A stretch of DNA of 64,000 bases, from the NCBI GenBank assembly GCA_963729625.1, contig CAVSOU010000010.1:448001-512000 (forward strand). The letters are read 5' to 3'. A model generated the notes under the pieces. The model was given only the letters and a program-made list of their open reading frames with translations, was not told where the DNA came from and did not search any database. The translations under genes were made by a program, and so were the position numbers. Below are positions 11,211 through 52,814 of the stretch, in pieces (the stretch's first letter is position 1; each line of letters starts with the position of its first letter). The stretch is from an uncultured bacterium. Its GTDB lineage: Bacteria; Chloroflexota; UBA5177; JANWHV01.

Positions 11211-12317
11211 GTGAGTCTACAAATGGGCATCGTGGGGCTGCCGAACGTCGGCAAGTCCACGCTATTCAACGCGCTGACAGCTGCCGGCGCTGCAGTTGCA
11301 AACTACCCGTTCTGCACTATTGATCCCAACGTCGGCGTTGTGGAAGTACCGGATGAGCGGCTGCACGTCCTCGCCGACATGGTGCATCCGAAGAAGATCG
11401 TGCCAGCCACCATGGAATTCCTGGATATTGCTGGGCTCGTGCGCGGGGCCAGCAAAGGTGAAGGGCTCGGAAATCAATTTCTCGGCCATATACGAGGCGT
11501 GAACGCCATCGGCATGGTGGTGCGCTGCTTTTCCGACACCAACGTCATGCACGTGGAGGGCACTGTCGAGCCAAAGCGCGATATAGAGACTATCACCATT
11601 GAGCTATGCCTCGCCGACTTGCAGGCCGTTACGAAGCGCGCCGACCGTTCCCGCAAAGCCGCAAAATCCGGAGACAAGAAGCTGCTGGCCGAGGCAGATA
11701 CGCTCGACGAGCTTGCGGCGCATCTCAACCAAGGTCTCCCGGCTCGAACATTTGAGCTGACTGAGGGTCTGGCGCCGATCTTACAGGAGCTGCATCTGTT
11801 GACGGCCAAACCCGTGCTGTATATTGCCAATCTCGACGAATCCGACATGGCGACGCTGAATGTGCGCAAACCTGCCAGCCTCGAAGCCGTCGAGGCATAC
11901 GCCAATGCTGAAGGAGCGCAGGCAGTTGCGGTGAGCGCGAAGATCGAAGCCGAGCTCGGCGAGCTCGGGCCGGAAGAAGCTGCGTTTTACTTGTCGGAGC
12001 TTGGCCTTCCCGAGGGCGGCCTGCCACGGATGATCACGGCGAGCTACGCGTTGCTCGATTTGATTACGTTCCTGACTGCCGGTGAGCCTGAAGTACGCGC
12101 GTGGACTATCCGCAGGGGTACACGGGCCCCCCAAGCAGCAGGTACAATCCACACTGACATCGAGCGCGGCTTCATCCGCGCGGAAGTCACGGCCTACAGC
12201 GAACTGATCGCGGCCGGCTCATTTGCAGTGGCACGAGAGCGGGGCGTAACCAGGCTGGAAGGCAAAGAGTATGTGATGCAGGACGGAGACGTTGTCTACT
12301 TCCGCTTTAACGTATGA
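11211..12317 (+). CDS. ychF: Redox-regulated ribosome-binding ATPase YchF
   Basis: GIVGLPNVGKSTLFNAL, NYPFCTIDPN, DIAGLVRGASKGEGLGNQFL, C-terminal TGS domain ending FRFNV. Confidence 0.97.
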   Translation: MSLQMGIVGLPNVGKSTLFNALTAAGAAVANYPFCTIDPNVGVVEVPDERLHVLADMVHPKKIVPATMEFLDIAGLVRGASKGEGLGNQFLGHIRGVNAIGMVVRCFSDTNVMHVEGTVEPKRDIETITIELCLADLQAVTKRADRSRKAAKSGDKKLLAEADTLDELAAHLNQGLPARTFELTEGLAPILQELHLLTAKPVLYIANLDESDMATLNVRKPASLEAVEAYANAEGAQAVAVSAKIEAELGELGPEEAAFYLSELGLPEGGLPRMITASYALLDLITFLTAGEPEVRAWTIRRGTRAPQAAGTIHTDIERGFIRAEVTAYSELIAAGSFAVARERGVTRLEGKEYVMQDGDVVYFRFNV

Positions 12318-12405
12318 GCTGACAGGCACACAGGACCACGAACTCGCGCCCGGGGCCGCGCAGAGTCAGTCCGTGAGGGAAACCCGCCAGTCTCGCTTGG
12401 TGTCG

Positions 12406-12633
12406 ATGCCGGTTGGCGTCTCCATCGACGATCGACGTGCGACCCTCAACTGGGCTCTTTCGGCGGTCATCGCATCGGCCGTGGCGGCCTATATGGCCGC
12501 GGAATCTCGAGGCCCGATGGACGACACCACTAGAGCGAGCTGGGCTGATGAGGAGCTGTATCGCGACCTGCGCGGCGCGGGGCCCTGGCCTTCCGGCCGC
12601 GCTTCATGGCACAGGGCAGAGCGACCCCGGTGA
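12406..12633 (+). CDS. Small protein resembling acyl-CoA carboxylase epsilon / OadG-MmdD C-terminus
   Basis: AVIASAVAAYM..SW..R pattern; stop overlaps the GTG start of the carboxylase (GTGA). Start uncertain (12373 or 12406). Confidence 0.5.
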   Translation: MPVGVSIDDRRATLNWALSAVIASAVAAYMAAESRGPMDDTTRASWADEELYRDLRGAGPWPSGRASWHRAERPR

Positions 12634-14423
12634 GCGGACGCATTGGCACGTCCGAGCGCCGGCTGCGCAGGGTACTCGTCGCCAGCCGAGGCGAGGCAGC
12701 TATTCGAGTAATCCAGGCATGCCGCGAGCTCGGAGCAGTGAGTGTAGCCGTGTACCGGGACGATGAGTCGCACGCACCGCATGTGCGGCTCGCGGACGAA
12801 GCCATCCCGCTCGGCGCATCGCGCGACAGCTATTTGAGCATCGACCGCATGCTCGAGGCGGCGCGTCGTGCCCGTGCCGATGCCGTGCATCCTGGCTCTG
12901 GACTGCTTGCTGAAAGTCCGGACTTTGCACGCGCATGCACAGCGAAAGGGCTGGCCTTTGTCGGGCCTTCGCCTGAAGCCATGATTGCCGTCGGCGCACG
13001 GACACGCGCGCGAAGCTTGGCGGTGCATGTGGGAATCCCGGTACTGGCAGATGAGCCGGAGATCATTCGCGACGACGCCCACGCGGTTGCCGTGGCCTCC
13101 CGTCTGGGATTTCCGCTCTCCGTGCTTCCTAGATCCGGGGCTGGAGGCCGCTCGCTGCAGATAGTACGGAAAGCGGACGACCTGGCGGATGCGATCAACC
13201 GCGTCCGGCATGAGGGACGGGTCTACTATGGTGACGACGGTGTCTGCGTGGAGCGGCATATCGCCGGACGTCGCCGCGTTGATGTGGACGTATTGGCCGA
13301 CATGCACGGCGACGCCCTAAGCCTGGGTCAGCGAGAGTGCCCGGTCCAGTATCTGCACCACAGGCTGATCGAGTTGTCGCCCGCTCGGTTGTCCGCGCAG
13401 CTGAGCCGAAGTCTTGATTCTGCCGCTGTCATGCTGGCGAAGGCCTGTGGGTACACGGGGGCTGGCACGTTCGAGTTCCTGGTTAACGGCGAAGAGTACT
13501 ATTTCCTGGGCGCTGTAAGGTGCCTTCAATCCGGGCACGCAGCAACAGAAATGGTCACGCGGATCGACATGGTGCAAGCCCAGCTGCGAATCGCCGGAGG
13601 CGAGAGAGTCTGGCTCGAACCTGGTGACGTACGGAGCGACGGCCACTCACTGTTGTGTCGAGTTCTTGCAGAGGCTTCCCAAACCAATGCCGTGCACGAT
13701 CGTGGAGCGTTTGCAGTCTATTGCGCGCCAACCGGCCCGGGGCTGCGGATCGACAGTGCGGTCTATGGGCGCTCTGACACAGAATCTTTGCAGGATTCGC
13801 TCATCGCGCAGGTATGCGCGTGGGGCCAAAATTCCGAAATGTCGCGGCAACGTATGATCCGGGCTTTGCGGGAGTTTGGCATTGAGGGCGCCCACACTAC
13901 AATTCCTTTTCTCTTGCGCGCGCTTCGGCATCCGCAAATAGCAGACGGCCATCTTTCCTCTGAGTTGGTTGAGCTTGTAGACGTCGCCGAATACGGCGAG
14001 CACACAAACGGCCGGCAACCTTCGGCGTTGACAGATGGCTTCGAAGACACTGCGCAAAAGAGTGGGAGTGCCAAGGCAGGTGGCAGGCGATTCAAGGTCT
14101 CCGTCGAGGGCCAACCATACGTGGTTGAGGTTGCCGAGCTTCCCCCACCAGGTCGAAGTTCACATCGAAGTCGCGCCGCGCGCCCATTGGTCACGAGGTC
14201 GGACGGCGTAGTAACAAGCCCTATGCGCGGCACGGTTGTGGAGCTGGCAGTATCGGAGGGCACATTCGTAAAAGAGGGCGCCGTACTTTGTACGATCGAA
14301 GCAATGAAGATGGAAAATGAAGTTCGTGCGCCACGTTCTGGGGTCGTTGCCGGCATCGAGGCGCGACCGGGCGACGGCGTCGCTGCCGGAGCGACGCTCA
14401 TGCGAGTGACCACGCAGGGATAG
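12630..14423 (+). CDS. Biotin carboxylase-BCCP fusion with degenerate catalytic motifs
   Basis: BC fold throughout (VLVASRGE, ADEAI, GAGTFEFL, GPGLRIDS) and an intact EAMKM biotinyl motif, but EMNTRLQVEH is replaced by GAVRCLQSGH. Confidence 0.85.
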   Translation: MSGRIGTSERRLRRVLVASRGEAAIRVIQACRELGAVSVAVYRDDESHAPHVRLADEAIPLGASRDSYLSIDRMLEAARRARADAVHPGSGLLAESPDFARACTAKGLAFVGPSPEAMIAVGARTRARSLAVHVGIPVLADEPEIIRDDAHAVAVASRLGFPLSVLPRSGAGGRSLQIVRKADDLADAINRVRHEGRVYYGDDGVCVERHIAGRRRVDVDVLADMHGDALSLGQRECPVQYLHHRLIELSPARLSAQLSRSLDSAAVMLAKACGYTGAGTFEFLVNGEEYYFLGAVRCLQSGHAATEMVTRIDMVQAQLRIAGGERVWLEPGDVRSDGHSLLCRVLAEASQTNAVHDRGAFAVYCAPTGPGLRIDSAVYGRSDTESLQDSLIAQVCAWGQNSEMSRQRMIRALREFGIEGAHTTIPFLLRALRHPQIADGHLSSELVELVDVAEYGEHTNGRQPSALTDGFEDTAQKSGSAKAGGRRFKVSVEGQPYVVEVAELPPPGRSSHRSRAARPLVTRSDGVVTSPMRGTVVELAVSEGTFVKEGAVLCTIEAMKMENEVRAPRSGVVAGIEARPGDGVAAGATLMRVTTQG

Positions 14424-14650
14424 ATTGGGTGCCGGTCATTGCGCAGTTGAAGCCAACGGCCGAGCGCCGTATGGCGCCGTGCGGAGCCGCGTGAATGCGG
14501 GACTCGCCGGCAGGGACTTGCTAGCTTCTGAACCGGGCAAGCGGCAGGATGCGACGCTACCCGGCACGAGCCGATGTTTCGCAGAGCACGCTGACTTGGC
14601 GATAGGGGCACACAGGTGATCGATACGCCGCATTCTCACACCAGGGCGAC

Positions 14651-15145
14651 GTGAATCTGGATACACTCTGGCGGGTGCTAGCGTATGCCAGGGCCGAGAG
14701 TCAAGATGATGTCGACCGGACCGCCGGCATCGTCATGGAGCTATTGGTCGAGCAATCCATCGAGAGTATCATGGCGTTCGACCGTGTATTGTTCAATCTG
14801 GTCGCTCAGGCGTACACGCCCCAGCTTTGGGCCGCGAGCTACATCATCAATTACGGCACAACTGACGCGGGCTTCGAATACTTCGCGGGCTGGCTCATCG
14901 CTAGGGGCAAGGAGACATATGAGGCCGCGCTGGCCGATGCTGACTCACTGACGGACGTCGTCAGCGTCGATGAAGAGGCCGAATGTGAAAGCATGCTCTA
15001 TGTCGCCCAGTACGCCTACGAGCGGCGCATGGGAACCGAGATGCCAATTCGGAACCGGCGTCCGCCCCCCCGCGACGTTACGCTGTTGCGCGAGAGCGAG
15101 CTGCCTCAGCTTTGCCCCAGGCTCTGGGCGAAATTTAGCGCGTAG
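14651..15145 (+). CDS. DUF4240 domain protein
   Basis: AYTPQLWAASYIINYG.TDAGFEYFAGWLIARGKETYE.AL.DAD.L, ECESMLYVA. Confidence 0.85.
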   Translation: MNLDTLWRVLAYARAESQDDVDRTAGIVMELLVEQSIESIMAFDRVLFNLVAQAYTPQLWAASYIINYGTTDAGFEYFAGWLIARGKETYEAALADADSLTDVVSVDEEAECESMLYVAQYAYERRMGTEMPIRNRRPPPRDVTLLRESELPQLCPRLWAKFSA

Positions 15146-15411
15146 GACAGTTCGGCGCGCTACGGCGTCCGGCAGCGTACCAATTCGCTTGCTCGTACCA
15201 TGCTCCCTGAGTAACGGGTGACCCGGCAAAGGGCCTGCTCGAGCACCGGGCAGGCCAAAGACGTCATGGAGCATGTGCTATATAGTTACAGTGAGGGTGT
15301 GTCTGCCTGGGCCAAAGTCGAGTTGCACGCACGGCGAAGCCGTTCAGTGGGGACTAGCTGGACCGCGCGTCAAGGAGCGACGCGAGATCCTCGGAGGCGG
15401 AGAAGAGGCTG

Positions 15412-16347
15412 ATGAACAAGGTCAAGGTGCGCTGCTCTGTCTGCGGAAAACCGTTCAAGACGCCGTCGCTCAAGAAGAATGTCTGCCCGTCATGCGAGGC
15501 GGAGGCCAAGCGCGCAAAGCATCATCAGACTGGGCCCCTCCCGGCTGCGCCGGTGGCCGCTGCTACCTCGTCGGTCGATGTTCGAGCGGCACTGCGAGCT
15601 GCACAGGAAAACCAGGGTCAGTTTGGTGCGTATCGACCGCCCGCTCCGGCCCCGGCTGCGGCGCCTGTAGACTCAGCGCGTGGGCAGGGGGTACACGCGC
15701 CCGCCACTCACCCAAGCAGGCGTGAAGACAGGCCCGCTGTGCGAAAGCCGCGGCCCACGGGTCAGCCACGACAGCGCGTGCCTCATCCGCCCAGGGAACC
15801 AAGGCCCCGCGTCGTGCAGAGGCCGTTTGAGCCAACGCCTGAGCAGACGGAGTCCGTGCGCCTTCGGTATCTGGAGCTCGCCCAGCCGGAGTTCGACGGC
15901 ATTCGGCATCAAATCGCGACCGAGCTCGGCATCCCCTTGCGGGTTATCAAGGATATCATCAAGAAGACTCGCGCAGAGGGTCAAATTCAAAGTTGGTGGG
16001 AACGCAACGGAGGGCTTCCGTCTCAAGAAGATCTCGCTCGCATAAGGGAGCTCTACCTGCCTTTGCTTCCAGAGCCTGATATAGGTGTTCACAAGGCTAT
16101 CGCCGCCCAGCTGCATTTGACCAACACGAGTGTGTACCAAGCAATCGGACAGATTCGGGCACAGCTTGAGCTTCCCCGATATCTTGACCGCGAGGGCGTG
16201 GAGCATTCAGGCGGCATCGCAGACGGCACTGCGGATTACGAACCGCCCGCGATCGAGGACGCCGGTCGGGACGCTGTCGGAAACTCCGCGCCACCCGACA
16301 CTACAGCCTCGGGAGTACCTGAATCCAAGCCGTTCGCCGGCGAATGA
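15412..16347 (+). CDS. Hypothetical protein: N-terminal Zn ribbon plus two HTH-like repeats
   Basis: CSVC..CPSC; repeats GIRHQIATELGIP and GVHKAIAAQLHLT; AGAGG SD. Confidence 0.7.
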   Translation: MNKVKVRCSVCGKPFKTPSLKKNVCPSCEAEAKRAKHHQTGPLPAAPVAAATSSVDVRAALRAAQENQGQFGAYRPPAPAPAAAPVDSARGQGVHAPATHPSRREDRPAVRKPRPTGQPRQRVPHPPREPRPRVVQRPFEPTPEQTESVRLRYLELAQPEFDGIRHQIATELGIPLRVIKDIIKKTRAEGQIQSWWERNGGLPSQEDLARIRELYLPLLPEPDIGVHKAIAAQLHLTNTSVYQAIGQIRAQLELPRYLDREGVEHSGGIADGTADYEPPAIEDAGRDAVGNSAPPDTTASGVPESKPFAGE

Positions 16348-17351
16348 GCGAGCGATTCGGCGTTCGGGAACACGGAACTCCTGAGAGTGACGACCTCGCC
16401 TCCAGGGTGCTTCGTGGCGACGTTCGCGCGATTGCCCGGCTCATCACGTATGTTGAGAACGGCCGGGTGGAAGCCCGACTTGCTCTTGGACGGCTTTTTC
16501 CGCATACTGGCCGCGCGTATGTCATTGGGATAACTGGCGCGCCAGGCGCCGGAAAAAGCACCCTTGTCGACGGCCTTATCCGGCTTGCGCGTGCGGAAGG
16601 AGGCGAGGTAGCCGTGCTTGCCATCGATCCCAGCAGTCCATTTTCGGGCGGCGCAGTCCTTGGCGATCGCATCCGGATGCAGACGAATTCGAGCGATCCC
16701 CATGTCTTCATCCGCAGCATGGGCGCGCGAGGACACCTGGGTGGGCTTGCGCAGGCCACGCGCGATGCCGTGCGAGTGCTCGACGCAGGCGGCTACGCTC
16801 TGATTCTGGTAGAAACTGTTGGCGTCGGGCAGTCTGAACTCGACGTTGCGGCGGCTGCAGACACGACTGTCGTCGTCGTCACGCCGGGCATGGGCGACAC
16901 TGTTCAGACGCTTAAAGCAGGTATTCTGGAGATCGCCGACATCTTTGCGCTAAACAAGGCCGACCAGGATGGCGCTCGCCGGACTCTTCTAGCACTCAAC
17001 AGTGTGCTGCACATGGACTCATGCCGCGCCTGGCGAGCGGAGGTTGTTGAGACGCGTGCACACGAGGGACTGGGCCTGGAGGAACTATGGTCCGCGCTTC
17101 GCCGCCATCGCGCGTATCTCGAGAACGAAGGTGAGCTTATTGCGCGGAGGGCCCATCGCCTTCGTCACGAAGTGCACAGCCTTGTCGACAGCGGGATCCG
17201 TGCGACGGTTATCCCACGTCTGCTTGCGGCCGCTCGCTGGGAGCCGATCATGCAATCCGTGGCAGACCGAAAGCTAGATCCCGCCGCCGGCGCGGAAGAG
17301 ATACTGCGGCAGGTGGCTGTGGCTTCGAGTATCGGGCATGAGCGGTCGTAG
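16344..17351 (+). CDS. meaB: Methylmalonyl-CoA mutase-associated GTPase MeaB
   Basis: GITGAPGAGKST, AIDPSSPFSGGAVLGDRIRM, ETVGVGQSE, KAGILEIAD, NKAD. Confidence 0.95.
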   Translation: MSERFGVREHGTPESDDLASRVLRGDVRAIARLITYVENGRVEARLALGRLFPHTGRAYVIGITGAPGAGKSTLVDGLIRLARAEGGEVAVLAIDPSSPFSGGAVLGDRIRMQTNSSDPHVFIRSMGARGHLGGLAQATRDAVRVLDAGGYALILVETVGVGQSELDVAAAADTTVVVVTPGMGDTVQTLKAGILEIADIFALNKADQDGARRTLLALNSVLHMDSCRAWRAEVVETRAHEGLGLEELWSALRRHRAYLENEGELIARRAHRLRHEVHSLVDSGIRATVIPRLLAAARWEPIMQSVADRKLDPAAGAEEILRQVAVASSIGHERS

Positions 17352-49954: not shown

Positions 49955-50926
49955 CTACCCGCGCCAGGTAAGGAAGCCGCCAGCCCAGGTCAGGCCTGCA
50001 CCAAACCCGATGGCGAGCACCCGGTCACCGTCGCGCAGCTCACCGCGCTCCACGGCATCCGCCAATGCAAGCGGGATGCTGGCAGCGGACGTGTTGCCGT
50101 ATTCTTCGATATTGGACAGGACCCGGCGAGGGTCGATCGCCAACCGCTTCGCCGCAGCAACAATCATGCGCTGATTTGCCTGGTGAGGAACGAACCACTC
50201 GAGGTCGTCCATGCCAAGCTCCTCGGCCCGCATGATGCGTTCGGTCACGTCTACGAGCGTGCGCACGCCGAACTTAAACGTATCCGGCCCGTTCATCGAT
50301 ACGCCGCCTGGGATGTGGCCGCCAGGATCCGGTATCGCTGCGCTATACATTGTCAGCATGGATGCCGCGGAACCGTCCGAGCCAAGCTCAAAGCGCGGTA
50401 GTGCACCGGGCAAGGCCGATCTCGCCAGCACGACCGCCGCTGCTCCGTCGCCGAACAATATACACGTGCTGCGGTCCGTCCAATTGAGCACACGCGAGTA
50501 GATTTCGCTTCCAATGACCAGCACCGAACGAGCGGAGCCGATTCGAATCATGCTGTCGGCAATCGCGAGCGCGTAGACAAACCCCGAACACGCCGCCTCG
50601 AGGTCAAATGCGCCGCCGCGGGCGCCGACCGCATGTTGCACGACGCAGGCCGATGCGGGAAAGCCGTAGTCCGGCGTGCACGTTGCGACAATAGTCAGAT
50701 CGACAGCGGAACCGTCAAGGTCCGCCGAACGAAGTGCGCTGCGCGCTGCCGCCACCGCCAGGCTGGTCGTCGTCTCGTACGGCGCGGCAATGTGCCGCCG
50801 ATGAATGCCGGTGCGCGCATAGATCCACGCATCCGAGGTATCGACCGTGAGCGCAATCTCATCGTTCGTCATGACACGCTCGGGGACGAATTTGCCACAC
50901 CCGAGCAACGTTGAGCGATAGGTCAT
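49955..50926 (-). CDS. fabH: 3-oxoacyl-ACP synthase III
   Basis: AACSGF, LFGDGA, PHQAN, GNTSAASIP, GFGAGLTW. Confidence 0.95.
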   Translation of the reverse strand: MTYRSTLLGCGKFVPERVMTNDEIALTVDTSDAWIYARTGIHRRHIAAPYETTTSLAVAAARSALRSADLDGSAVDLTIVATCTPDYGFPASACVVQHAVGARGGAFDLEAACSGFVYALAIADSMIRIGSARSVLVIGSEIYSRVLNWTDRSTCILFGDGAAAVVLARSALPGALPRFELGSDGSAASMLTMYSAAIPDPGGHIPGGVSMNGPDTFKFGVRTLVDVTERIMRAEELGMDDLEWFVPHQANQRMIVAAAKRLAIDPRRVLSNIEEYGNTSAASIPLALADAVERGELRDGDRVLAIGFGAGLTWAGGFLTWRG

Positions 50927-51372
50927 GCGTTGTCTCCGGTCGGCTCAATGTACATCAGTACCTGTCCCTTTTCTACGACGGCGCTCGGCTGGACTTCGAT
51001 CGCCCGTACGATACCCGCGAAATCTGTCTCCACTGGGTTATACATCTTCATACTCTCGATGAGCCCGACGACCTGCCTCTCCGACACAAACGAGCCGATC
51101 GTCACGAATGGCGGACTCTGCGGAGACTCGGTAACGTAGAAGATTCCCGTGAGCGGCGAGATCACTGGTCGCCAGCTGTCGGGATTGAGGTCAGCTTGCG
51201 CCGGGACAGCCTCCATCATAGCGGTCGCTGTGGCGAGCGAACGTTTGAGATACACGCGGTACACCCCAGCACGAAACTCGCATTCCGTAACGGCGGTGCC
51301 GTCCAGTTCGTCCAACAGCGCCGCGACCAGTCCGATCAGGCCCGGCTGGGGTTCAACGGTACGTCGGCCCAT
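50923..51372 (-). CDS. accB: Acetyl-CoA carboxylase biotin carboxyl carrier protein
   Basis: SPLTGIFY..P..PPFV, IESMKM. Confidence 0.9.
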   Translation of the reverse strand: MGRRTVEPQPGLIGLVAALLDELDGTAVTECEFRAGVYRVYLKRSLATATAMMEAVPAQADLNPDSWRPVISPLTGIFYVTESPQSPPFVTIGSFVSERQVVGLIESMKMYNPVETDFAGIVRAIEVQPSAVVEKGQVLMYIEPTGDNA

Positions 51373-52619
51373 CAGCGTGGTCGGTAACGCCGCAGCACCA
51401 TGCTCACATTGTGCCCGCCAAAGCCAAACGAGTTGTTGATCGTCGTGTCGAGTGGGCCCGTCGCTCTTGCCTCATTCGGCACGTAGTCAAGGTCGCACTC
51501 AGGATCAGGGAACTCGTAGTTGATGGTTGGCGGCACAACGCCATCGAGCATAGACTTGATGCAGAAAGCGGCTTCGGCCGTGCCGCCGGCGCCCAACATG
51601 TGGCCGGTGGCGCTCTTGGTCGAGCTGATCGGGATGTGGTACGCGCGCTCCCCGAATACTGACTTGATCGCGGCCGACTCTGCCCGGTCACCGGCAAGCG
51701 TCGACGTTCCGTGGGCGTTGATGTACTGCACCTGGTCCGGATGCACGCCTGCCTTTTCCATTGCCCGCCACATCGCACGCGCGGCACCCTCCCCGCCTAC
51801 GGCAGGCTCGGTCACATGATGCGCATCGGCCGTGGCAGCGTACCCGGCAACCTCAGCGAGAATAGTCGCGCCGCGGTGGAGGGCGAACTCTTCAGCTTCA
51901 AGCAGCAACACCGCAGCGCCCTCCGACAACACGAAGCCGTCTCGCTCCCGGTCGAACGGCCGCGAAGCGCGCTCAGGCTCGTCGTTTCTCGACGAGAGGG
52001 CTCGCATATTGGCGAACGCCGCCATTGAAATGAGCGTAATGGGCGCCTCCGATCCGCCTGCGAGCATCACATCCGCGTCTCCTCGACGGATAATCTCGCT
52101 GGCCTCACCAACAGCATGAGCGCCGGTGGAACAGGCAGAACTGATAGCGAAGTTGGGGCCTTTCATTCCATATTTGATCGATATCTGGCCAGCGGCCAAA
52201 TCCGTGATCATCATGGTGACGAAGAACGGGCTGATGCGCTCCGGACCTCGCTCGAACAGCACCGCGAACTGGTCCATCAAGGTGTTCAGCCCGCCGATGC
52301 CCGACCCGATGATCACGCCGGTCCGATCCGCCATTGACGGTTCGATCGTCAGGCGCCCCTGTGTCAGGGCCTCGTGGACAGTGGCCATGGCCAACAGCGT
52401 AAAACGGTCGCACCGCTTCGCAAGCTTGAAGTCGATGTCAAAGTCACCCGGATCGAATCCGTGTACCTCGCCCGCGATTCGGCACCGGAGCGGCGTGGCG
52501 TCGAAGTATGTCACCGGCCCTATCCCGCTGCGTCCCGCGATCAGCCCACTCCAAGTGGCATCGAGACCGATACCCAGCGGGCTAATAACTCCCATACCAG
52601 TTACGACAACTCGCCGCAC
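51372..52619 (-). CDS. fabF: 3-oxoacyl-ACP synthase II
   Basis: RRVVVTGMG, SACSTG, NAHGTST, GHMLGA, NSFGFGGHN; GTG start after GAGGAG. Confidence 0.96.
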   Translation of the reverse strand: MRRVVVTGMGVISPLGIGLDATWSGLIAGRSGIGPVTYFDATPLRCRIAGEVHGFDPGDFDIDFKLAKRCDRFTLLAMATVHEALTQGRLTIEPSMADRTGVIIGSGIGGLNTLMDQFAVLFERGPERISPFFVTMMITDLAAGQISIKYGMKGPNFAISSACSTGAHAVGEASEIIRRGDADVMLAGGSEAPITLISMAAFANMRALSSRNDEPERASRPFDRERDGFVLSEGAAVLLLEAEEFALHRGATILAEVAGYAATADAHHVTEPAVGGEGAARAMWRAMEKAGVHPDQVQYINAHGTSTLAGDRAESAAIKSVFGERAYHIPISSTKSATGHMLGAGGTAEAAFCIKSMLDGVVPPTINYEFPDPECDLDYVPNEARATGPLDTTINNSFGFGGHNVSMVLRRYRPR

Positions 52620-52668
52620 GTCTCCTCCTCGCACGCCGGGCGCCCCTGGCCCCGGCCGGTCGCAGGGA

Positions 52669-52677
52669 AGTATAGCA
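52669..52677 (-). promoter_or_regulatory. Extended -10 promoter of the fab operon (TGCTATACT)
   Basis: TGn+TATACT on the minus strand, 50 nt upstream of fabF. Confidence 0.55.
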
Positions 52678-52814
52678 TAGCTGCGCCTCCCCGCCCGAGA
52701 GATCACTGCCCGGGCCCGGCGCCGGGCCAGCAACCAGTCCTGCCCCGCGATCGGTCAGAATGCTGTACGTTGTACGCGTGCAGGTCCCTAATATAGGAGG
52801 TTAGTTCGATCGAC

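Follow-up and report, generated by a model that had tools for sequence, protein, structure and literature searches.

The window analyzed here is a stretch of 64,000 nucleotides from the genome of an uncultured Chloroflexota bacterium (GenBank assembly GCA_963729625.1, contig CAVSOU010000010.1, positions 448,001 to 512,000 of the forward strand). It contains a gene for the alpha subunit of a biotin-dependent carboxylase in which the active site of the biotin carboxylase (BC) domain is dismantled and the biotin carboxyl carrier protein (BCCP) domain is intact, and a small open reading frame (ORF) directly upstream of it. The source genome (G000; 5.4 Mb, 21 contigs, 87% complete) was compared with genomes from four further species of its genus-level group (G001 to G004), among them the congener G001 (95% complete with 10% contamination). 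The completeness of the five genomes ranges from 83% to 95%. A class-level set of 21 genomes was also used (the unpublished genome G018 is counted in the tallies 41/41, 5/21, and 21/21 only). Residue positions of the BC site follow the numbering of the reference, Escherichia coli K-12 AccC. Ratios of nonsynonymous to synonymous substitution rates (dN/dS, omega) were calculated by NG86 for G000 versus G001; they are rough because dS has reached saturation in each of the six genes compared (alpha dS ~2), although dN is still far below dS. The two genes and the domains of the alpha subunit are located in the window as follows:

12406..12633, + strand: small ORF of 75 aa (ATG start, TGA stop), in epsilon-subunit position and translationally coupled to the alpha gene
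12630..14423, + strand: alpha subunit with the dead BC, 597 aa, GTG start, AccA3 type (BC, beta-hairpin, BCCP)
12663..12983, + strand: BC N-terminal domain, aa 12-118 (Pfam Biotin_carb_N, E 4.4e-37; dN/dS 0.156)
12999..13607, + strand: ATP-grasp domain, aa 124-326 (Pfam CPSase_L_D2, E 9.5e-38; dN/dS 0.158)
13656..13973, + strand: BC C-terminal domain, aa 343-448 (Pfam Biotin_carb_C, E 5.2e-21; dN/dS 0.183)
14085..14138, + strand: two-stranded beta-hairpin RRFKVSVEGQPYVVEVAE, aa 486-503, conserved in dead and canonical relatives
14211..14405, + strand: biotinyl (BCCP) domain, aa 528-592, with EAMKME (Pfam Biotin_lipoyl, E 2.8e-16; dN/dS 0.132)
14307-14309, + strand: codon of the biotinyl lysine K560 within EAMKME

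A first-pass annotation of the sequence had described the alpha gene as an uninterrupted ORF of 597 codons with the full BC fold, and Pfam finds all four domains in it (an alternative ATG at 12606 would give a longer form of 605 aa). Residues 11-441 match solved biotin carboxylases in a PDB sequence search (best match 8hz4, E 8.9e-101) and the protein matches a 598-aa mycobacterial AccA3 chain over its full length (E 7.9e-95). An AlphaFold model based on a 14-sequence alignment has a mean pLDDT (predicted local distance difference test) of 76, with the BC and BCCP parts mostly at 80-95 and low values only in the linker. Foldseek ranks AccA3 from the long-chain acyl-CoA carboxylase of Mycobacterium smegmatis (9yx2_A) first among the matches of the model, and structures of BC alone align with the model at a TM of 0.85-0.89. 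Its architecture makes the protein an alpha subunit of the AccA3 type; it is a biotin carboxylase by three-domain architecture and fold but not by its catalytic residues.

Alignment to E. coli AccC reveals replacements at thirteen positions of the BC site: K116R (just before the limits of the ATP-grasp domain), K159L, G164A, H209R, E211D, K238R, E288G, N290V, T291R, R292C, V295S, E296G, and N340L. Eight of the replaced residues (K116, K159, H209, K238, E288, N290, R292, and E296) presumably serve ATP, Mg, and bicarbonate in the E. coli enzyme, where single changes at K238, E288, N290, R292, or E296 lower BC activity by orders of magnitude. The loss of K159, E288, N290, R292, and E296 that had been read by eye is thereby borne out for all five residues, and the altered motifs that had been listed (ASRGE, GSGLLAES, VGAR, VLPRSGAGG, RRVDVD, QYLHHR, and GAVRCLQSGH) are all present in the translation; within the BC N-terminal domain, ANRGE became ASRGE and GYGFLSE became GSGLLAE. 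Retained are E201, Q233, H236, E276, Q294, and R338, the glycine-rich loop, which persists as GAGGR, and R16, E23, and R366, which we take to be residues of the BC dimer interface. The biotinylation site is intact in the translation, as annotated (EAMKM), and EAMKME is unchanged in all 14 aligned sequences, dead and canonical. The structural and sequence matches of the alpha subunit include the mutant BC structures E288K (1dv2) and E296A (3g8d), and a preprint on the M. tuberculosis pyruvate carboxylase assigns R292, Q294, and N290 to the biotin site and E275, E288, and the loop around G164 to the phosphates. The BC domain appears to fold but, judged from its residues, no longer to use ATP and bicarbonate to carboxylate biotin.

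The dismantled site is not confined to one protein. A search of 5.8 billion clusters identified four more dead-site proteins (P0005 to P0008) with 68%, 60%, 57%, and 57% identity to the alpha subunit of the window (P0004), the next best match being at 46%; the nearest named relatives carry labels of Chloroflexi or Chloroflexota metagenome-assembled genomes. K159, H209, K238, N290, R292, and E296 are replaced in all five members and K116R is found in four, and all catalytic positions are kept in the AccC protein of the same genome and in nine out of nine canonical relatives aligned. The recurrence of these changes in four further database proteins shows that the pattern of losses is not due to chance. 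In a maximum likelihood tree (30 rows, quick search, SH-aLRT support only) the dead sequences form one clade (SH-aLRT 100, stem of 1.16 changes per site) that is nested among the canonical alpha subunits (P0009 to P0022), with P0012, P0013, and P0011 of G002 as closest canonical neighbors and with the dead alpha subunit of G001 almost identical to P0006. Among the 160 loci listed in searches of genome and metagenome contigs, where generic patterns of the EAMKM type predominated, all are at most 50% identical over full or partial matches and none belongs to the dead clade; the DNA of the clade in this comparison comes from G000 and G001 only.

The reading frames are open in all five members. 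Of the 205 alignment columns that never vary among eight canonical relatives, the dead clade preserves 89; another 105 have become variable, and in the remaining 11 all members share a new residue (including H209R, K238R, T291R, and G164A). The mean identity within the clade is highest in the BCCP domain (69%, vs. 55-63% in the BC parts), whereas the canonical relatives show the reverse (58% in the BCCP domain vs. 64-69% in the BC parts).

The genomic surroundings link the dead gene to a working one. Besides the two genes above, the window contains the following relevant genes:

11211..12317, + strand: ychF, a synteny anchor common to G000, G001, and G002
14651..15145, + strand: DUF4240 gene, 3′ of the alpha gene and in the same place in G001
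15412..16347, + strand: 311-aa ORF of a family without a name, with an N-terminal CxxC...CxxC (no Pfam match)
16344..17351, + strand: meaB, methylmalonyl-CoA mutase-associated GTPase (PF03308, E 6.4e-90)
50923..51372, - strand: accB in a fabF-accB-fabH cluster, encoding an ordinary biotin carboxyl carrier protein with ESMKM, the normal substrate of AccC (the one live BC of the genome)

The same layout of ychF, small ORF, dead alpha, DUF4240, 311-aa ORF, and meaB is found in G001. In the sister species G002, a short contig carries the 3′ end of ychF followed by a homologous small ORF and the canonical alpha P0011, which indicates that the dead gene is the positional orthologue of a working one. 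The canonical alpha gene of G003 and G004 lies in a different operon, 3′ of a mutase fragment and 5′ of pccB (on contigs G003 C101 and G004 C270 the order is mutase fragment, unknown 529-aa ORF, pccA, and pccB), and a profile search detected no small ORF in the alpha operons of these two genomes. The distance of meaB from the alpha gene, given as about 2 kb by the first-pass annotation, is 1.9 kb. The 311-aa ORF has a proline-rich middle and shares an ATGA overlap with meaB, to which it is thereby coupled; it is 70% identical in G001 (dN/dS 0.13). A scan of positions 12200-15500 for promoters and terminators gave no signal above shuffled controls.

Several observations concern the selection that acts on the gene. 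Between G000 and G001 the alpha gene has a dN of 0.32 and a dS of 2.0 (omega 0.16), and the values of the individual domains (see above) are all similarly low, with the lowest in the BCCP domain. The corresponding values are 0.05 for ychF, 0.09 for the DUF4240 gene, 0.13 for meaB, 0.13 for the 311-aa ORF, and 0.26 for the small ORF. A comparison with a close strain (soil metagenome contigs, 95-99% identical) is independent of the saturation of dS but includes few sites from low-depth contigs: seven out of eight listed differences in the alpha gene are synonymous third-position changes, the remaining one being T104I, and five out of eight differences in the small ORF are synonymous. The protein identity between G000 and G001 is lower for the dead alpha (59%) than for AccC (91%), YchF (88%), PccB (87%), and MeaB (67%); the canonical alpha subunits of G002 and of G003 and G004 are 60-61% identical at a larger genomic distance. 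The dead alpha subunit evolves at a raised, yet non-neutral, rate. Because four relatives share the losses, omega is ~0.16, and the strain differences are mostly synonymous, the gene is not a case of recent decay and is under purifying selection in all domains. This supports the view of the first-pass annotation that a pseudo-enzyme has been retained rather than a gene being in decay. Four relatives with shared substitutions were found, in line with the search for orthologues that this annotation had suggested, and in G001 the small ORF is likewise located 5′ of the dead alpha gene. Canonical motifs in close relatives combined with a dN/dS near 1 had been named as the signature of recent decay; a close relative with canonical motifs does exist in the same position (G002), but dN/dS is far below 1.

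The small ORF extends from ATG 12406 to TGA 12633 and its stop codon shares the sequence GTGA with the GTG start of the alpha gene, confirming the coupling that had been noted. Its start is uncertain, as gene callers also propose a start at TTG 12292, giving 113 aa and an overlap with the 3′ end of ychF. Positions 12465-12615 within the ORF are matched exactly by one 151-nt contig of a metatranscriptomic library, which is too little to call expression. The ORF had been described as epsilon/delta-like, and this holds in so far as the gene is real, conserved, and located where an epsilon gene would be, whereas its sequence matches neither ACC_epsilon nor OAD_gamma. No Pfam match and no PDB sequence match was found at E ≤ 10, and a six-frame search of the genome with PF13822 (ACC_epsilon) gave no match at the locus. 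The same six-frame search gave seven identical weak matches on contigs C7, C8, C10, and C21 of G000, each within an open frame of 468-469 aa, which look like copies of a mobile element. A profile built from four copies of the small ORF retrieved 19 proteins at E ≤ 0.001 from 1.84 billion representatives; 15 small matches (58-116 aa) align and share the motif AVIAAAxAAYL...W...GPWPxG..WxEAERPR toward the C-terminus. Searches with these 15 members gave no Pfam or NCBIfam family, PF13822 matches none of them, and OAD_gamma matches only one, at E 0.17. In the ESM Atlas the best match of the small ORF (score 0.89) is a cluster without a name, and at rank 10 (score 0.80) stands a cluster in which 34% of the members carry PF26062 (PccX); both are leads only, and a literature search for PccX returned nothing relevant.

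The small ORF or a homologue lies directly 5′ of the alpha gene in G000, G001, and G002, and the profile matches 5/21 of the class-level genomes, with the match directly 5′ of a canonical alpha gene in G012 and G013. The pccB gene, encoding the beta subunit, is located immediately 5′ of the alpha gene in 9 of 13 relatives' loci checked; all nine belong to the sister family f3, and by eye all nine gaps between pccB and alpha hold an ORF with the pattern EExAAVLAAIxxYL...RW..AGRLEA. The profile of the small ORF matches two of the nine loci, at E 2.6e-5 and 2.7e-4. Upstream of alpha, or between pccB and alpha, the small ORF thus occupies the place of the actinobacterial epsilon-subunit genes, suggesting by analogy that the small protein may act in the role of AccE5. 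According to a structural report on M. smegmatis (PMC13612425), hairpins from four AccA3 chains and one strand of AccE5 form a nine-stranded barrel, and AccE5 ties this barrel to the carboxyltransferase hexamer. The alpha hairpin at residues 486-503, the strands of which are predicted in the AlphaFold model and in which R486, F488, V490, G494, Y497, V499, V501, and E503 are invariant within the dead clade, could be the equivalent of the hairpin in this alpha4/epsilon barrel. A complex prediction with four copies of alpha 468-528 and the small ORF scored 0.25 against a mark of 0.32 and was used neither way.

The rest of the carboxylase system is distributed over the genome. G000 contains two BC genes, the dead alpha and a canonical accC located next to fabD at C10:926 kb, and G001 likewise contains only these two. 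Carboxyltransferases are encoded by accD and accA at C10:212303-214229 and by a single PccB-type gene that stands alone on contig C14, so both the active BC paralogue and the carboxyltransferase that the first-pass annotation had suggested looking for are present. A methylmalonyl-CoA mutase is also found in G000. The propionyl/methylmalonyl-CoA metabolism to which the gene had been assigned because of meaB gains support from the pccB-small ORF-alpha order in family f3, and the ancestral context of the dead alpha gene is an operon for propionyl-CoA carboxylase (PCC). PrpD of the methylcitrate cycle was considered as a linked function and rejected, since its presence in G000, G003, and G004 and its absence from G001 and G002 do not correlate with the dead alpha. 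The PYC_OADA (5S-type) domain has no match in G000, which is 87% complete, and OAD_beta has none in the five genomes G000 to G004.

Three further observations were made on carboxylase genes. The pccB gene of G001 (C8:307731-309198), which is 87-88% identical to that of G000, has a single-base insertion near codon 226 that breaks the frame; it could be recent, or an assembly error in this partly contaminated genome. The fabF-accB-fabH cluster spans positions 49955-52733 of the window (- strand), and the context of the biotinyl lysine in its AccB is ESMKM, not EAMKM. Outside the window, directly 3′ of efp, G000 contains a BCCP-like ORF of 150 aa (C10:157015-157467, - strand) in which AAMQLQ replaces EAMKME and the biotinyl lysine is gone; a match to it is present in 21/21 class genomes, with Q at the lysine position in all 12 loci read (AMQLQ or EALQV), and from its sequence it looks like a class-wide pseudo-carrier similar to the plant BADC proteins.

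The reading favored here, with a probability of roughly 55%, is that the gene encodes a retained pseudo-enzyme: a PCC-type alpha subunit with a dead BC that serves as biotin carrier and scaffold for PccB. The alpha subunit would be biotinylated on its intact BCCP domain, would assemble with the small epsilon-position protein and the separately encoded PccB, and would present carboxybiotin to the latter. AccC, acting in trans, may carboxylate the biotin of the alpha subunit; it is the most likely carboxyl source because it is the only live BC found in G000 and G001, but this part of the reading is tentative and stands at somewhat less than even odds. A supply by AccC would make the BC site in cis redundant, leaving the BC domain to be retained for its structure. 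PccB and AccC are strongly conserved between G000 and G001 (87% and 91%).

A number of points weigh against this interpretation. The alpha and pccB genes are unlinked in G000 and adjacent in the nine f3 loci, and a genuine frameshift in the pccB gene of G001 would mean that this genome is losing its carboxyltransferase, which would weaken the carrier model. That the alpha subunit binds PccB, AccC, or the small protein is a proposal. A canonical alpha gene could be missing from the assembly of G000 at its completeness of 87%; G001, at 95%, also lacks one, but with 10% contamination. The selection evidence is limited by the saturated dS and by the small number of strain differences (eight listed, from low-depth contigs). 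Finally, H209R, K238R, T291R, and G164A are fixed in all five members and not relaxed, and such fixed replacements at former catalytic positions are better explained by a changed role in ligand binding than by a domain that persists as structure only. The invariant arginines newly acquired in the former pocket speak for a BC domain that does more than fill space.

Two alternatives have a comparably small chance of being correct. In the first, the biotinyl domain moves CO2 between carboxyltransferases without a BC step, as an ATP-independent carboxyl shuttle. It could run between PccB and AccA/AccD (methylmalonyl-CoA + acetyl-CoA to and from propionyl-CoA + malonyl-CoA), or form part of a soluble methylmalonyl-CoA decarboxylase in which the remodelled BC pocket handles carboxybiotin. 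The BC chemistry is lost while the carrier is the best conserved part, the genome contains two carboxyltransferase systems as well as the mutase and meaB, and R338, Q294, and E276 are retained in a pocket in which new arginines are fixed, all of which is consistent with a shuttle. However, the partners of the two known ATP-independent biotin systems, PYC_OADA and OAD_beta, were not found in the genomes given above, and the transcarboxylase or decarboxylase role suggested in the first-pass annotation likewise gains no support from partner genes; AccC is a simpler carboxyl source, and to our knowledge no enzyme of the proposed kind has been described.

In the second, at about the same low level of probability, the protein is a regulatory subunit whose dead BC domain senses a nucleotide or another anion, or which pairs with AccC or PccB and keeps them inactive. 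New arginines at former phosphate and bicarbonate positions (K116R in four of the five members; H209R, K238R, and T291R in all five), the glycine-rich loop retained as GAGGR, and the preserved dimer-interface residues agree with such a role, and non-catalytic subunits of the plant acetyl-CoA carboxylase (ACCase) provide a precedent (PMC12706156). A pure regulator would not need a biotinyl domain that is the most conserved part of the protein and carries an invariant EAMKME.

A more speculative proposal, slightly less probable than either of these, is an undescribed ATP-independent biotin enzyme, either a methylmalonyl-CoA:acetyl-CoA transcarboxylase producing malonyl-CoA with no input of ATP, or a protein whose arginine-rich pocket decarboxylates carboxybiotin or serves in allosteric sensing. 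Continued catalysis by the BC domain with an unusual active site is very improbable: E201, Q233, H236, E276, Q294, and R338 are retained and most of the lost lysines became arginine, but eight positions for ATP, Mg, and bicarbonate are changed together, with N290, R292, and E296 replaced in all five members. Slow decay of a pseudogene, or of a gene without remaining function, is equally improbable and largely refuted: the low identity of the G000 and G001 proteins (59%, compared with 91% in AccC and 87% in PccB), the 105 of 205 canonical-invariant columns that vary, and the possible frameshift in the pccB gene of G001 are outweighed by the five open frames, an omega of ~0.16, the synonymous nature of seven out of eight strain differences, and the 89 columns that are still invariant together with the 11 fixed to a new residue.

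Few enzymes are as conserved as biotin carboxylase, and a dismantled BC site that is under selection together with an intact carrier in a natural alpha subunit is unusual. A full-text literature search, with most subscription journals beyond its reach, returned no description of a BC-dead alpha subunit. The reading of the protein as carrier and scaffold raises the question of whether a free-standing AccC could supply carboxyl groups to the carrier of another carboxylase; if it does, a single ATP-using module serves the carboxylation reactions of both fatty-acid and propionate metabolism. The alternative question is whether a PccB-type complex can run without any BC, and either answer bears on the modularity of biotin enzymes and on the origin of pseudo-enzymes inside multi-subunit enzymes. 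In addition, the analysis defines a small unannotated protein family at the epsilon position of Chloroflexota PCC operons.

Among known systems, the dead alpha subunit is most readily compared with AccA3 of M. smegmatis and M. tuberculosis (PDB 9yx2, 9t97), which has the same ~600-aa arrangement of BC, short beta-hairpin linker, and BCCP and which works with a beta subunit of the PccB/AccD type and a small epsilon subunit (PMC13612425). AccA3 is an active BC, whereas in the dead alpha subunit K116, K159, H209, K238, E288, N290, R292, and E296 are all replaced. The canonical PCC alpha subunits of the Chloroflexota are 44-46% identical to it and share its length, hairpin, and BCCP domain but, unlike it, keep every catalytic residue. 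The small ORF resembles AccE/PccE (ACC_epsilon) and the archaeal PccX, the latter known as a small subunit in Haloferax, in that these are likewise small proteins encoded beside alpha or beta genes; it differs from AccE/PccE by the lack of a PF13822 match, and the C-terminal motif GPWPxG..WxEAERPR is unique to its family. The 1.3S subunit of transcarboxylase and MmdC/GcdC of the Na+-pumping decarboxylases are the biotin carriers of ATP-independent enzymes. As in the role proposed for the dead alpha subunit, their biotinyl domain serves a carboxyltransferase of the 12S/PccB type without a working BC, but these carriers have no BC domain at all, and their 5S-type (PYC_OADA) and OAD_beta partners were not found in G000 and in G000 to G004, respectively. 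The plant BADC proteins, characterized in PMC12706156 as non-biotinylated BCCP look-alikes that modulate the heteromeric ACCase, are likewise non-catalytic paralogues of a biotin-enzyme component that are kept within the system. They are the mirror image of the protein in the window: in BADC the carrier is dead and there is no BC, whereas the alpha subunit combines a dead BC with an intact carrier.

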